From IMG/VR virus record IMGVR_UViG_3300035498_002028: 64,000 nucleotides of DNA; one strand, given 5' to 3'. Shown here one piece after another: positions 789 through 47,713 of this stretch; within the stretch, counting starts at the first letter, position 1; every line of letters starts with the position of its first letter. The notes beneath the pieces were generated by a model, which ran no database searches, had not been told where the DNA came from, and saw only the letters and a program-made list of their open reading frames with translations. This DNA is from a virus. Lineage: Duplodnaviria > Heunggongvirae > Uroviricota > Caudoviricetes. The translations under genes and the position numbers were made by a program.

Positions 789-1655
789 TTAAAATCCTGT
801 TTGCTTTCCAACGAAATTTATTGGTTTTCCTGTAGCCTTATCTACTCCATGACCAACGACTTTAACAGAATAATCTTCCCAATGTTCTCCCTTTTTGTGC
901 CACTTTGTTTCATCTTCATAATAACCATCTGTATACGCAATAACGAACTGAACTGTTCCTTTGAAATTCTTTATCCATGTTGTAGTCCATCTTCTGTCTT
1001 TGTGATAATCAAAATCCGGATTATACTTCAACACTTCATCCAAAAGAAAAACGGAAACCAATCCTGCATCTGCACAAAATTCTCCAATTTCTTCTTCTGT
1101 ATCGGTATTATATGTAGTGCAGCTCCAATCGCCATATAATGTATCTCTTGTCATATATGTATGGATTCCAAGCACTTCCATTTTTGAGCCATAATCACAA
1201 GCATACCAATCATTATCTGTTAATGGTTTAGTTCCATGATGTTCAGCTCTCATAATATAACAAGGGTCTGTAATAATGATATCTCCATCAAATTCTACAG
1301 GTTCACTATCCAAATATCTGGTTCCATCATATGTTGATTTATACTCAAACATCATAGAAAATGCTTCAATATCAATTTCTTTGAGCCACTTAATATATAA
1401 TGCATAACCATGTTCATATTTATCAGCATCGCAATAATCAAAATATCCGTACTTTATGTCAGAACAAAAACTGAATATTTTATACGTATTCCCTTCTTGC
1501 ATAACAGAATCAAATCTTTTAATAAGTTTCTCTTTGTTCTCTTCAAGAATAAGATTGCAAGTTTTAATTCCATTTACAATGATATCTCTTCTTTTTGCAA
1601 TTTCTGAGTTATACCATTTCTCTTTTTCTTGCTGCCATTCCTTATCCATTTTCAT
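789..1655 (-). CDS. Hypothetical protein
   Basis: 288-aa ORF, tightly coupled to both neighbours. Confidence 0.75.
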   Translation of the reverse strand: MKMDKEWQQEKEKWYNSEIAKRRDIIVNGIKTCNLILEENKEKLIKRFDSVMQEGNTYKIFSFCSDIKYGYFDYCDADKYEHGYALYIKWLKEIDIEAFSMMFEYKSTYDGTRYLDSEPVEFDGDIIITDPCYIMRAEHHGTKPLTDNDWYACDYGSKMEVLGIHTYMTRDTLYGDWSCTTYNTDTEEEIGEFCADAGLVSVFLLDEVLKYNPDFDYHKDRRWTTTWIKNFKGTVQFVIAYTDGYYEDETKWHKKGEHWEDYSVKVVGHGVDKATGKPINFVGKQTGF

Positions 1656-3078
1656 TCTCCTTATATAGAATTACTTTGGTTTCCAGTCCACGTTCTTTCG
1701 CAAGTTTAATCATGTGCAATGTTCCTTTTGATTTTCCATCCCAGAATGCATATAATATTCCATTGCCCTTACTAGCATAACTAGCCATGTCAGCATTTCT
1801 TAGATATCCTGCACGTTTCCCAAATGTATTCCAATTAGCTGGCATTTTTACAAGATTTATGTTGTGTTCTTCTGCAAATCTTTCACCTAGCTTATCAGCT
1901 CCATTTGCTGTGCCAGATATTATAGTCATATTTTCAAAATTGTTTTCATTCTCCATCAAATGCTTTGATAATAATTCATAATCCGTAAACGACCTACTAC
2001 CAGCAACAATTATTCTTATATCATCTTTCTTTTCCATAGCTTCCTCCAAACCATATTGCTCAAATAATTCTTCTACGAAACAATCCATACTATGAATTAG
2101 TTTAATGCAATTACCGTGTGATGCATGAGCTTTCCATGAACCATATTTTTCATAGAAATCTTTTACCGATAATTCGCCTTTTGCAATCAGCTTTACATAT
2201 TTTCTAAGTCTCTTCTTAATCTGCCTTTTATTATCGCCAGTCAGTTTGCGAATTACTTTACCTTCTTCTGTTATATATGTGTGAAATCCCAGAAAACGGA
2301 TACCTTTTTTCAATGGGACAATTTCTGTTTTGTCGTTCAATGTCAGATGTAATGTTGACAAATACTCTTGTATAGCATTCAAACAAAATTGTAAATATTC
2401 TTTATCTTTTGCTATCAAGTAAAAATCGTCCATATACCTTCCATAAAATTTACATCCTAACTCTCCTGTTATAAAATGGTCTAAACCATTTAAGAACATT
2501 AGTGCAAAAACCTGGCTTATCTGGTTTCCTAATGGAAGCCCTACTCCATCTGTGCTGTCAATAAATAAGTCACATACATACTGTACTTCTTTATCGTTTA
2601 TGTAATAATGGACGATATTTCTTAGTATCTCGTGGTCAATACTATAAAAGAATTTGGTTATATCACATTTTAATATATATCCGTCATAACCATTTTCTTC
2701 ATAAAACTCAGATATGTTTTCAGATAGCCTATCAAGCCCGAACAAAGTCCCTTTGCCTATCTGACCAGCATAATTGTCTTTAATGAAAATGTTCTCCATC
2801 TTTGGCAATAATACATAATCACATAGACAATGCTGTAAAACTTTGTCTCTAAAAGAACCGGACTTTACAACTCTTCTTTTTGGTTCGCTGACAATAAATT
2901 CTGTATATGGCGAAATTTTGTATTGATGATTCATTAACTGTTGCTTCATCAAATACAGGTTTTCAAGTGCCATCAAATCAAATTTGACAGCACTTGATTT
3001 TTTACCTTTACCGCGCATAGAAACTTTATATGAGCGATACAGATTTTCAAAGCTAATTAACTTTTGAAAATCTTCCAT
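1642..3078 (-). CDS. DGR reverse transcriptase with C-terminal SLOG (DUF2493/YspA-like) domain
   Basis: RT motifs YAGQIGKGT, GLPLGNQISQ, RYMDDF. From residue ~348: IRIIVAGSRSFTDY...IISGTANGADKLGERFA...RNADM...AFWDGKSKGT (SLOG fold). Confidence 0.92.
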   Translation of the reverse strand: MEDFQKLISFENLYRSYKVSMRGKGKKSSAVKFDLMALENLYLMKQQLMNHQYKISPYTEFIVSEPKRRVVKSGSFRDKVLQHCLCDYVLLPKMENIFIKDNYAGQIGKGTLFGLDRLSENISEFYEENGYDGYILKCDITKFFYSIDHEILRNIVHYYINDKEVQYVCDLFIDSTDGVGLPLGNQISQVFALMFLNGLDHFITGELGCKFYGRYMDDFYLIAKDKEYLQFCLNAIQEYLSTLHLTLNDKTEIVPLKKGIRFLGFHTYITEEGKVIRKLTGDNKRQIKKRLRKYVKLIAKGELSVKDFYEKYGSWKAHASHGNCIKLIHSMDCFVEELFEQYGLEEAMEKKDDIRIIVAGSRSFTDYELLSKHLMENENNFENMTIISGTANGADKLGERFAEEHNINLVKMPANWNTFGKRAGYLRNADMASYASKGNGILYAFWDGKSKGTLHMIKLAKERGLETKVILYKENENG

Positions 3079-4951: not shown

Positions 4952-5140
4952 TCATTCCTTTATACATTGTTTTAATTGTGCAATTATTTCCTTCACTTCT
5001 TTCACAGTGTAATCAACCTCTGAATATCCTTGATGTATATTGATAAGACCAGTCTCTTTATCTTTATAGAAACTAATACCATCATTCTGTCCTTTGCTTG
5101 CGTTTACACCGTAATATTTCGTCTTAACCATCTCATTCAC
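4952..5140 (-). CDS. Hypothetical protein
   Basis: 62-aa ORF in operon. Confidence 0.6.
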   Translation of the reverse strand: MNEMVKTKYYGVNASKGQNDGISFYKDKETGLINIHQGYSEVDYTVKEVKEIIAQLKQCIKE

Positions 5141-6035
5141 CTACATAGACCAACGAATCAATGTAGTCCCTTCCGTCACCTTTGAATAAAGGGATTTCAT
5201 TATCTATAATCCACTGTTCTCTTGCTCTAAAATTTGCTCCGTCCGGTTCGCCAACAACAACTTTTTTACAGCAACTTCCTCTTTTGCAAGTCGTTGGTAA
5301 ATCATTCCAATTGATAGCTTTTTGTAACATGAGCATATCCTGGATATCATTGCAACTCTTGTTTTGTAATTCTCTGTGACTAAAATTTGCTTGTCCTACC
5401 ATCTGAATAGAGTTTCTAGTAGCATCCAGTTGCCGCCAATAAACCAAGTTGGTAACTTCTTCCTTTGGAATGTTGAAACATCGAGCATCAAACATAGCGC
5501 CTTTGTCCACCGCATTTTTATATATTGATAGGTATTTACCGTTATTACAAAAAATTTCATTATTTTCGTTTATTATTTTCTTCTTTTCTTCATCTGTTAT
5601 TTCATCATCAAAATAATAACCTTCGTAGAAATGCCGTTTTGCTTTCTCAAATTTCCATATAAAACTATCAACATTTTTAGCGAAAAACTTATTAAATGCC
5701 ATTGTAGCCATTGAAGCTGCAATGCTACACATTTTCTGTACTTCATAATCAAACCATGCAGAAGTTGTGAGTTTCTGGTAGTCAATCAAAATCAGTGTGA
5801 TTTCGTCTGACTGAGTATAGCCTAATACACAACCTTGAATATTCTCACATAAATATTTCATTGTTTCCTGCATAACTTTTTGAAGAACAAAATCAAACGG
5901 TCTAATAAATCCTCTGGTGAATGTATGAAATGATTTTCCATCCAATCTCATAGCAACAGGACATCTCCGCATAAGAGAAGATTTTGAGACTGCTTCATAA
6001 TTTTTCATTCGTTTCGCTAAATCACTCGTGTCCAT
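5133..6035 (-). CDS. thg1: tRNA-His guanylyltransferase (Thg1-like)
   Basis: RLDGKSFHTFT, GYTQSDEI, AMFDAR, WRQLDATRNS motifs. Confidence 0.92.
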   Translation of the reverse strand: MDTSDLAKRMKNYEAVSKSSLMRRCPVAMRLDGKSFHTFTRGFIRPFDFVLQKVMQETMKYLCENIQGCVLGYTQSDEITLILIDYQKLTTSAWFDYEVQKMCSIAASMATMAFNKFFAKNVDSFIWKFEKAKRHFYEGYYFDDEITDEEKKKIINENNEIFCNNGKYLSIYKNAVDKGAMFDARCFNIPKEEVTNLVYWRQLDATRNSIQMVGQANFSHRELQNKSCNDIQDMLMLQKAINWNDLPTTCKRGSCCKKVVVGEPDGANFRAREQWIIDNEIPLFKGDGRDYIDSLVYVGE

Positions 6036-36790: not shown

Positions 36791-36862
36791 CTACAGCCTG
36801 TCTCATCAGTGCCAGGCGGCTAGTCACTGGCAGATGCCCTTCCGGGCATTTCGACTATACAA
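36791..36862 (-). ncRNA. Hammerhead ribozyme (type II, stem II open)
   Basis: Minus strand: UAUAGUC-GAAA-UGCCC(ggaa)GGGCA-UC^-UGCCAG(N11)CUGGCA-CUGAUGA-GAC..CUGUA. Complete core; predicted cut 36833/36832. Confidence 0.93.
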
Positions 36863-37157
36863 GAAGTCGTTTGATGTCTCTTTTCAGATTTTCAAACATC
36901 CGTATCTGGTTTTCAAGCTCGCGGGCGTTGGCTTCGTATTTGGACAGTAGAACTTTAAGCGATTCCGTCTCAGCTTCAAGCTCTTCTATTCTCCTGGCTC
37001 TGATTCTACACAATCTCTGTACGCCGCCATTCTTGACCCATCGCTTACAAAATGCGTCCTTGTCAATGTCGCATCCCATATACTCGGATTCGATATCAGC
37101 GTATTCGGCTGCTGTCGGCTCAAATTTCGTCCTTTCGATAAACTCACTCATCATCAT
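36855..37157 (-). CDS. Hypothetical early protein with coiled-coil C-terminus, flanked by ribozymes
   Basis: 100-aa ORF, RBS AAGGAGG; TAG stop lies inside hammerhead stem II. Confidence 0.75.
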   Translation of the reverse strand: MMMSEFIERTKFEPTAAEYADIESEYMGCDIDKDAFCKRWVKNGGVQRLCRIRARRIEELEAETESLKVLLSKYEANARELENQIRMFENLKRDIKRLLV

Positions 37158-37185
37158 AGACTTATCCTCCTTTTATTCCTGCATC

Positions 37186-37241
37186 CCAGGCTTGCAACTG
37201 GCTCTGGCTGCATTACCGCCCATTCCGGGCGTTGCTCTGCA
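37186..37241 (-). ncRNA. Twister ribozyme (type P5 permutation)
   Basis: UGCA-GA-GCA-A-CGCCC(ggaau)GGGCG-GU^AA-UGCA-GC-CAGAG-CCAG-U-UGC-AA-GC-CUGG. P1, P2, P4 and both pseudoknots pair; predicted cut 37215/37214. Confidence 0.9.
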
Positions 37242-46252: not shown

Positions 46253-47713
46253 TTGTATGGGAGGATATGTATGGGAAAGAAGAAAATAAAGAATGATGGG
46301 ATTTACTTTACCGGAGAATCAGCAAATGATGTGACTGGTTCACAATATGTTGTAAAATTCGGAAACTATCAATGTCTTTTAGAATGTGGACTACACCAAT
46401 CAAAAAGTAATAGTTTTCTTGATTCATATAGAATCAACTCTGCAAAGTTTAAATTTAAACCAGCAGATATAGACTTTTTATTTGTTGCACATCCGCATAT
46501 AGACCATTGTGGTCTTATTCCAAGATTGGTAAAAGAAGGTTTTCATGGGGAAATTATTACTACACAGAAAACGGCGATGATTATGAAGCCGCTTTTACTG
46601 AACTCCTGCTATATTGTTGAAGATGAAGCAAGAGTATTATCAAAACGCTATAGCAGAGAATATAAACCATTATACACTGAGGAAGATGTATATAATACAC
46701 TTGACCTGATTTGCACATATGATAATTATGATGAAATCATAGAACTCAATGAAGTTGTAAGTTTTCAATGGTTAAAGAACGCACATTGTATTGGTGCTGC
46801 TCAATTGCAGCTTATATTATCTGATGAGCGAAAAACAAAAAAGATTTTATATACTTCTGATATTGGTGCTTTGGAAACAAATAATCATTATTTAGAGAAT
46901 ACTGAGATTCCGGCAATGTTTAATGACGTTGTTATTATGGAATCTACATATGGAAGTTCTGCAAGAATAAACAAGAAAACCAGAAATTTTGACATTGAAC
47001 ATTTGCGTGTTGCTATCAACACAGTTATAGAACGCAAAGGAAGTGTCATATTGCCGTGCTTTAGTTTTAGCAGAACTCAAGAACTTTTAACAACATTATA
47101 TGATATTTTTGGTAACGATAATAATTTCAATGTACCAATTATTGTTGATTCAAAGTTGAGTTGCGAAATTTGTGATTTATATAATGAATTATTAGATGGC
47201 TCAGATTTTGAATATTGGAATAATGTGTACACATGGAAAAATGTAAAATATATATCTGAAAAGACTGATTCACAGGCTTGTCTTTCTGATAATCAACCAA
47301 AGATAATTATTTCTTCATCTGGTTTTTGTACAAATGGTAGGATTATTAACTATCTACAAAAATATTTAAAAGATGTGAATAGTATGATTATCTTCTCTGG
47401 TTATATTGGTGACAATCCTTCTTATCTATCATATCGGATAAAAAATTATCGTGACCATAAAGATATTAAAATTAACAAAGAACAGATTCCAAATAAAGCT
47501 GATTGTATTACGCTTTCTACATTTAGTAGCCATGCTGGACATAATGACTTAATTAAATATGGTAGTTCATTACTAACAAATAAATTAGTCCTAGTGCATG
47601 GCTCAGAAGAAAGCAAACTTTGTTTGGCAGACAAATTAAAAGATGCTATATCCAAAAATAATAAGACTTATAAGGTGATTCCGTCTGTAAAGGATATGGT
47701 TATACATTTGTAG
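46253..47713 (+). CDS. Metallo-beta-lactamase/beta-CASP ribonuclease
   Basis: VTGS, ECG, HPHIDHCG, AHCIGA, YTSDIG, MESTYG, FSFSRTQEL, SSHA, LVHG; start probably MGKKK. Confidence 0.92.
   Translation: MYGRICMGKKKIKNDGIYFTGESANDVTGSQYVVKFGNYQCLLECGLHQSKSNSFLDSYRINSAKFKFKPADIDFLFVAHPHIDHCGLIPRLVKEGFHGEIITTQKTAMIMKPLLLNSCYIVEDEARVLSKRYSREYKPLYTEEDVYNTLDLICTYDNYDEIIELNEVVSFQWLKNAHCIGAAQLQLILSDERKTKKILYTSDIGALETNNHYLENTEIPAMFNDVVIMESTYGSSARINKKTRNFDIEHLRVAINTVIERKGSVILPCFSFSRTQELLTTLYDIFGNDNNFNVPIIVDSKLSCEICDLYNELLDGSDFEYWNNVYTWKNVKYISEKTDSQACLSDNQPKIIISSSGFCTNGRIINYLQKYLKDVNSMIIFSGYIGDNPSYLSYRIKNYRDHKDIKINKEQIPNKADCITLSTFSSHAGHNDLIKYGSSLLTNKLVLVHGSEESKLCLADKLKDAISKNNKTYKVIPSVKDMVIHL

Follow-up and report, generated by a model that had tools for sequence, protein, structure and literature searches.

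The locus analysed here raises the question of what becomes of a phage transcript in which self-cleaving ribozymes of two classes occupy the gaps between small genes. It lies in the window, by which is meant the whole stretch of 64,000 nucleotides that was analysed. The phage is a large tailed phage from the gut, and its genes in the window include a portal, ten tRNAs, a sliding clamp, NAD salvage, a Thg1-like protein and a beta-CASP RNase. The first-pass annotation had described a single gene excised by a twister and a hammerhead as a 382-nt RNA with ligatable ends. It had further proposed that such fragments could become circular mRNAs and that a terminating ribosome could gate the folding of the hammerhead.

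A non-coding region of about 1.6 kb separates diverging genes, and the ribozymes are found in the first kilobase of the leftward operon, all three within 1 kb. The order along the transcript is gene 1, twister 1, a 102-aa ORF with a 30-aa micro-ORF, twister 2, a 100-aa ORF, the hammerhead, a 121-aa ORF and more small genes. Two promoter candidates sit just upstream of the RBS and ATG (38045) of the first gene. Cuts were placed at the accepted cleavage sites, between U and AA before P2 in the twister and 3' of C17 in the hammerhead. The features are the following:

38236-38208 and 38119-38091, minus strand: two sigma-70-like promoter candidates (consensus scan, 11/12 and 10/12; pattern match only)
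38045-37791, minus strand: gene 1 of the operon, related to a DUF8033-like gene of 85-100 aa in relatives (sequence reading)
37765-37709, minus strand: Twister-P5 ribozyme 1 (RF02684, 44.2 bits; predicted cut U37740/A37739)
37739-37215, minus strand: predicted 525-nt fragment, between the two twister cuts
37671-37363, minus strand: 102-aa ORF, weakly DUF3574-like, with a phage SAM-lyase-like fold (Pfam, AlphaFold model and Foldseek)
37347-37255, minus strand: conserved 30-aa micro-ORF, in the 525-nt fragment together with the 102-aa ORF
37241-37186, minus strand: Twister-P5 ribozyme 2 (RF02684, 48.6 bits; predicted cut U37215/A37214, the 5' boundary of the 382-nt fragment)
37214-36833, minus strand: predicted 382-nt fragment, from the twister 2 cut to the hammerhead cut
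37157-36855, minus strand: 100-aa ORF, PHROG 15742 (match with E 5.7e-13)
36856-36792, minus strand: type II hammerhead ribozyme (RF02276, 36.6 bits; predicted cut after C36833, at 36833/36832, the 3' boundary of the 382-nt fragment)
36769-36404, minus strand: 121-aa ORF, first gene on the RNA 3' of the hammerhead cut

Gene 1 is split by an in-frame TAA at 37937-37935 into pieces of 36 and 42 aa. An intact 87-aa homologue is present in L052 (2600-2863); the split occurs in independent assemblies and is found again in the gene calls of L058, and no suppressor tRNA for this TAA was identified among the ten tRNAs of the window. Eight loci with gene 1 homologues carry no known ribozyme. The 102-aa ORF matches Pfam DUF3574 under the family cut-off (E 1e-3). 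Its AlphaFold model (pLDDT 95) has as best PDB fold match the phage SAM lyase Svi3-3 (6zm9; Foldseek E 7e-7, TM 0.71), a fold that makes it plausible that the protein may act as an early anti-restriction or anti-signalling enzyme. The fold also resembles SAM-AMP lyases, and this family adjoins twister or hammerhead ribozymes in many phages. Homologues of the micro-ORF, of 31-33 aa, were identified in L052, L197 and L201, and part of one in L193. The 100-aa ORF comprises a conserved N-terminal part of about 65 aa followed by a coiled-coil tail, and a Protein Atlas search with it returned no function. Flanking known ribozymes were found in 0 of 50 IMG/VR loci with homologues of this ORF, and the cassette is therefore not tied to the 100-aa gene. 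The 121-aa ORF had no family match in PHROG or Pfam and one distant relative only.

RNA-related functions are unusually numerous in this phage. The beta-CASP metallo-beta-lactamase RNase (46253-47713, plus strand) is aCPSF1/Cas14-like, with 244 bits to NF045584; its gene lies between two tRNA clusters and adjoins a ClpP-like protease, and the enzyme could act on 5'-OH or processed RNAs. A Thg1-like 3'-5' nucleotidyltransferase (5133-6035, minus strand) and a reverse transcriptase fused to a YspA/SLOG domain (1642-3078, minus strand) are also present. The 1.6-kb non-coding region between the divergent operons contains a perfect CIRCE-like inverted repeat, TTAGCACTC-N9-GAGTGCTAA, at 38708-38682, which hints at a host with HrcA.

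Both twisters were identified by an Rfam cmscan of the whole window and lie above the gathering score of RF02684 (37.6). The hammerhead was identified in a more permissive Rfam scan of 28-46 kb, with 36.6 bits against a gathering score of 37 and E 2.6e-4 over those 18 kb; no other ribozyme class was found in that scan. The hammerhead core is complete, with CUGAUGA, GAAA and U16.1-C17 all present, and its helices are closed stems I and III of 6 bp each and an open stem II of 3 bp (GUC/GAC), with a 5-bp pseudoknot between loop I and the 3' tail. The twisters carry the conserved core UAAUGC. Five twisters, two from the window and three from L052, were aligned and 18 pairs were counted, both pseudoknots included. 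All 18 are kept in 5/5 twisters (100% of cells paired) and 9 of them differ on both sides; the observed pairing score was reached by 0/500 shuffles, and slid registers came nowhere near it. Pseudoknots T1 and T2 both covary, the T2 triplets being GGA/UCC, GCA/UGC, GUA/UAC and GUG/CAC. In twister 1 the elements P1, P2, P4, T1 and T2 are all paired, with covariation, and an orthologous copy is found in L052, L194 and L198; twister 2 differs from L052_TwC by compensatory changes in P4 and T2. In the seven type II hammerheads compared, which come from the window, L193, L201 and L208, every stem is intact and loop I forms a pseudoknot of 4-6 bp with the tail, in six different sequences. From these patterns of sequence we regard the three window ribozymes as genuine, and their activity is predicted.

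The cassette region is 100% identical in five other independent public assemblies. A blastn search of INPHARED phages with the ribozyme region and 24 kb of the window gave no match, and an exact search of IMG/VR with the window hammerhead found nothing. Four of the hammerheads in relatives (L193 646-702, L201 2911-2968, L201 3840-3897 and L208 6070-6145) have one additional U where the CUGAUGA core meets stem II (CUGAUGA-U-GAC or -GGC), with stems and pseudoknots intact. Three of the four, those of L193 and both of L201, fall under Rfam reporting thresholds, and the L208 copy has 38.2 bits.

With these Rfam calls, the cuts predicted from the sequence and the known cleavage sites (37740/37739, 37215/37214 and 36833/36832) give exactly 37214-36833 as the piece between twister 2 and the hammerhead, and the proposed one-gene excision is borne out to that extent. 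This piece contains one RBS, the 100-aa ORF and its TAG, and on reading the sequence the stop overlaps hammerhead stem II, as had been noticed. In order, the predicted fragment comprises the 3' remnant of the twister, the RBS (GGAGG, 37170-37166, minus strand), the 100-aa ORF, TAG, the 3' strand of hammerhead stem II, GAAA, the stem III hairpin and C17 with its cyclic phosphate. The TAG lies at 36857-36855 (minus strand), its final G being the outermost base of stem II, and CGAAA starts 1 nt after it. On the other side, the hammerhead tail directly precedes the RBS AGGAGGA of the 121-aa ORF. The neighbouring 525-nt fragment does carry the DUF3574-like ORF, with the qualification that the Pfam match is weak and the fold is like that of a phage SAM lyase. 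From the predicted cleavage chemistry both fragments should bear a 5'-OH and a 2',3'-cyclic phosphate, and would be ligatable in principle, in agreement with the earlier description.

The explanation that we favour, and consider probable, is that the ribozymes cut the polycistronic early transcript into hairpin-capped linear mRNAs of one or two genes. The leftward early operon would be transcribed as one RNA, which would be cut by the two Twister-P5 ribozymes and the type II hammerhead, each sitting exactly in the gap between small genes. The linear products would be gene 1; the SAM-lyase-like 102-aa gene with the 30-aa micro-ORF (525 nt); the 100-aa gene on its own (382 nt); and the 121-aa gene with all that lies downstream. 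Both ribozyme permutations are expected to close a helix just before the scissile bond, and the new 3' end would thus be a closed hairpin (twister P1 or hammerhead stem III). Each upstream product would end in a hairpin and a cyclic phosphate about 22-27 nt past its stop codon, and each downstream product would begin with a 5'-OH, followed closely by a hairpin (twister P4 or hammerhead stem I), and would have its RBS free. Each cistron would become a separately capped and separately translated unit, its RBS freed from the upstream context. We infer that the RNA is cleaved in vivo and that cleavage serves to uncouple early genes, probably of anti-defence function, in their stability and translation.

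For clustered phage ribozymes, native transcripts of about 2 kb were fully cleaved in vitro and processing into single-gene mRNAs was proposed (Perreault 2011, PMC3088659); a review (PMC6765202) proposes the same role, and describes the role of self-cleaving ribozymes in bacteria and phages as an open question. Two points count against processing into linear messages. Relatives L053, L054, L206 and L207 express the same genes without ribozymes, so the genes can do without processing. RNase J1 of Firmicutes can be attracted by a 5'-OH end, which is the mechanism of glmS ribozyme regulation, and the downstream RNA could thus be made less stable by cleavage instead of being protected.

Relatives were obtained as contigs fetched via homologues of the 102-aa protein, to which L052, an IMG/VR locus sharing the operon head, was added. 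Their ribozyme sets, in comparison with that of the window, are the following:

Window: two twisters and one type II hammerhead
L052: three twisters and one type I hammerhead
L194-197: three twisters
L198-200: two twisters
L193: one type II hammerhead and one twister
L201-203: three type II hammerheads
L205: one twister
L208: one type II hammerhead, one type III-like hammerhead and one type II hammerhead
L053, L054, L206 and L207: none

The junction before the 102-aa gene has conserved flanks and is occupied by a twister in four lineages and by a type II hammerhead in L193 and L201/L203; the 102-aa homologue of L193 is 92% identical to that of the window. Directly after the 102-aa stop a twister is found in L193, L052, L194 and L198 and is missing from the window, the difference being a clean indel of about 83 nt. 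At the junction preceding the 100-aa gene the window has a twister and L201 a hammerhead, the L201 homologue of this gene being 82% identical. In L201 this homologue has a ribozyme upstream only, the next gene following 9 nt on with none between, so single-unit excision of the 100-aa gene is not conserved. The cargo between conserved junctions also varies: the 100-aa gene in the window, and a 56-aa and a 46-aa gene in L201. By sequence comparison, then, the recurring feature appears to be cutting at some point between small early genes, irrespective of the ribozyme class found there. If the classes are interchangeable, what matters would be the cut and not the RNA fold.

The position of the ribozymes relative to stop codons was surveyed for both classes. 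Type II hammerheads were gathered from IMG/VR by pattern scan, and the spacing between the upstream ORF's stop and the C of CGAAA was measured. For 81 hammerheads the median was 2 nt, the 1 nt of the window being the mode; among 78 non-redundant hammerheads the distance was at most 3 nt in 47 and at most 10 nt in 65. Downstream of the surveyed hammerheads a median of 28 nt separates stem II from the next start, and this space is taken by the tail and the RBS. The Twister-P5 survey (n=64, from IMG/VR by covariance-model search) gave a median of 1 nt from the upstream stop; 18/64 begin immediately after the stop, and in 8/64 the TGA of the ORF lies inside the twister. Abutment on the stop was identified also in L052, L194, L198 and L208. 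In six IMG/VR loci (L212, L220, L224, L233, L236 and L262) the upstream ORF runs 10 nt into the Twister-P5 and stops at the TGA within the conserved GAGUGA, and L224 contains six twisters at intervals of about 550 nt. In IMG/VR the distance from one ribozyme to the next is mostly 280-700 nt, the size of one small gene. No mention of stop codons or ribosomes was found in Perreault 2011 (PMC3088659). Neither class replacement at orthologous junctions nor these stop-codon statistics were found described in the literature searched.

Enzymes able to seal the fragments were searched for in the phage and in possible hosts. The remark that the window has no RtcB gene holds for its ORFs of at least 330 aa, where PF01139 is absent. 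Neither was RtcB found in the related phage records G001-G003 (29-78% complete), in the MAG G004, which shares a portal-like contig, or in G005, a 3.8-Mb genome carrying the twister-flanked relative L205. A search of genome contigs with the portal protein gave one 5-kb MAG contig only. RtcB is present in 6/31 relatives of G005, so that the search for rtcB, in data that are incomplete, was negative for phage and candidate hosts and positive for some of the relatives of one of them. The record G003 contains a different pair of genes (L204 889-3194), an RNA ligase of 456 aa (PF09414 with an OB fold) followed by a P-loop kinase/HD phosphoesterase fusion of 312 aa. This pair could stand in for RtcB in the phage group, and a refutation based on RtcB alone would then be too narrow. 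G003 has the ligase pair and no detectable ribozymes, so the pair is not linked to ribozymes, and it is more likely a tRNA-repair kit than a ribozyme partner.

Two other explanations bear on the layout itself. Cleavage might be gated by translation: a ribosome terminating at the stop codon, where the ribozyme starts, would cover the 5' strand of the ribozyme, and cutting would be delayed or tuned by upstream translation. This proposal for the hammerhead fits a geometry that proves to be class-wide, from the TAG, 1 nt and CGAAA of the window to the same abutment in both surveyed classes, but the downstream side is just as tight, and simple genome compaction explains the layout equally well. Moreover, cleavage is irreversible and one ribosome-free moment would be enough, and twisters 1 and 2 of the window stand off 25 and 13 nt from their upstream stops. 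We consider gating unlikely. It is very unlikely, in turn, that the ribozymes are mobile or recombination-prone linkers between small-gene cassettes, of no benefit to expression. Their patchy presence among close relatives would fit such linkers, as would the clean indel that includes a whole twister in L193 compared with the window and the differing cargo between conserved junctions. However, the copies are always on the coding strand and exactly between genes, and every copy has an intact core with compensated stems and pseudoknots, which indicates selection for activity.

The remaining explanation is that a host RtcB, or a phage kinase-HD and RNA ligase pair, closes the 382-nt and 525-nt RNAs into stable circular mRNAs by joining the two ends of each. 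The end chemistry is right in principle, since a 5'-OH and a 2',3'-cyclic phosphate on one RNA are established for both ribozyme classes; the pair of G003 is available in a related record, and engineered ribozyme-flanked circles work in bacteria according to the literature. The ends of the two fragments, however, pair no better than chance would have it, in line with the first-pass annotation, which had seen no strong end-to-end pairing. For the 382-nt fragment the end duplex has -18.0 kcal/mol against a mean of -15.3 (sd 3.4) for shuffled ends, with 20% of shuffles as good or better; about 2 end-to-end pairs are expected in the ensemble, and the MFE folds of both fragments leave the ends apart. 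These ends are a 3' remnant of a twister and a 5' remnant of a hammerhead, so no ribozyme can re-form across the junction. For self-ligation of the 525-nt fragment a hybrid twister was considered, with its 3' half from twister 1 and its 5' half from twister 2, and was rejected on a T2 mismatch (GGA/UCC vs GCA/UGC) and a weakened P2. The 382-nt fragment has a stop codon and a length that is not a multiple of 3, and in L201 the homologue of its gene has a ribozyme on the upstream side only. Circular or spliced products of clustered phage hammerheads were considered earlier and none was detected (Perreault 2011, PMC3088659), and our literature search found no later papers showing natural phage ribozyme circles. 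With end pairing at chance, heterotypic ends, no RtcB found and double flanking not conserved, the proposal of circular mRNAs is not upheld, and we judge ligation of these fragments highly improbable. It is equally improbable that excised one-gene RNAs sealed in infection form a natural DNA-encoded circular-mRNA expression cassette in a bacteriophage.

The proposed processing into linear, hairpin-capped messages has likenesses to several engineered and natural systems. Tornado, attributed to Litke and Jaffrey (2019), is reportedly an engineered twister-flanked RNA ligated by RtcB, in which the ribozyme remnants form a stem presenting the ends to the ligase. As in Tornado, one RNA would here receive both a 5'-OH and a 2',3'-cyclic phosphate from the two ribozymes that flank it; unlike in Tornado, the fragment ends do not pair, and no RtcB was found in the data searched. 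The RiboJ-type ribozyme insulators of synthetic biology are said to go back to Lou et al. (2012). The locus is like RiboJ in having, just upstream of an RBS, a self-cleaving ribozyme that would remove upstream RNA context and leave a hairpin at the new 5' end, and unlike it in that the set is natural, multi-copy and of several ribozyme classes, and would also cap the 3' end of the upstream message. In retrozymes and viroid-like circular RNAs, a single ribozyme is restored from identical tandem hammerheads where the ends are joined, and the RNA takes the shape of a rod (PMC4918200, PMC7229834). The shared element is a ribozyme pair that would excise a unit-length RNA with ligatable ends, whereas in the window the two classes differ, there is no rod, and the cargo codes for protein and has an RBS.

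The closest precedent is given by the clustered ribozymes flanking phage and prophage genes, known since 2011 (Perreault et al. 2011, PMC3088659). As in those clusters, several ribozymes lie between small phage genes of one strand and bracket single genes or short blocks of them, and the genes are variable; an anti-restriction-like gene is flanked in both, ardA in Perreault 2011 (PMC3088659) and the SAM-lyase-like ORF here. In contrast to them the window cassette is heterotypic, with a Twister-P5 upstream and a type II hammerhead downstream. Gene contexts shared by twister and hammerhead are attributed to Roth et al. 2014 in the summary given in PMC6765202. In samples from IMG/VR a type II hammerhead was identified in 6/80 twister loci and a Twister-P5 in 1/80 hammerhead loci, rates that are lower bounds because the search model is narrow, and twister-then-hammerhead pairs 0.5-0.95 kb apart were identified in a few IMG/VR loci. 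The ribozyme-punctuated gene layout of phages is thus already known, and the window locus is a well-supported example with a heterotypic pair.

Circles, if true, would be a natural precedent for engineered circular mRNA, which present evidence makes unlikely. In most of the phage ribozymes surveyed, type II hammerheads as well as Twister-P5, the upstream stop marks the start of the ribozyme, and a link between termination and cleavage is thereby directly testable. Depending on the relative, the same early operon head carries three twisters, three hammerheads, a mixed set or no ribozyme at all, which makes it a clean natural experiment. The relatives offer matched constructs for effects on mRNA stability and translation, and the experiment provided by nature argues that the cut itself is the selected function.
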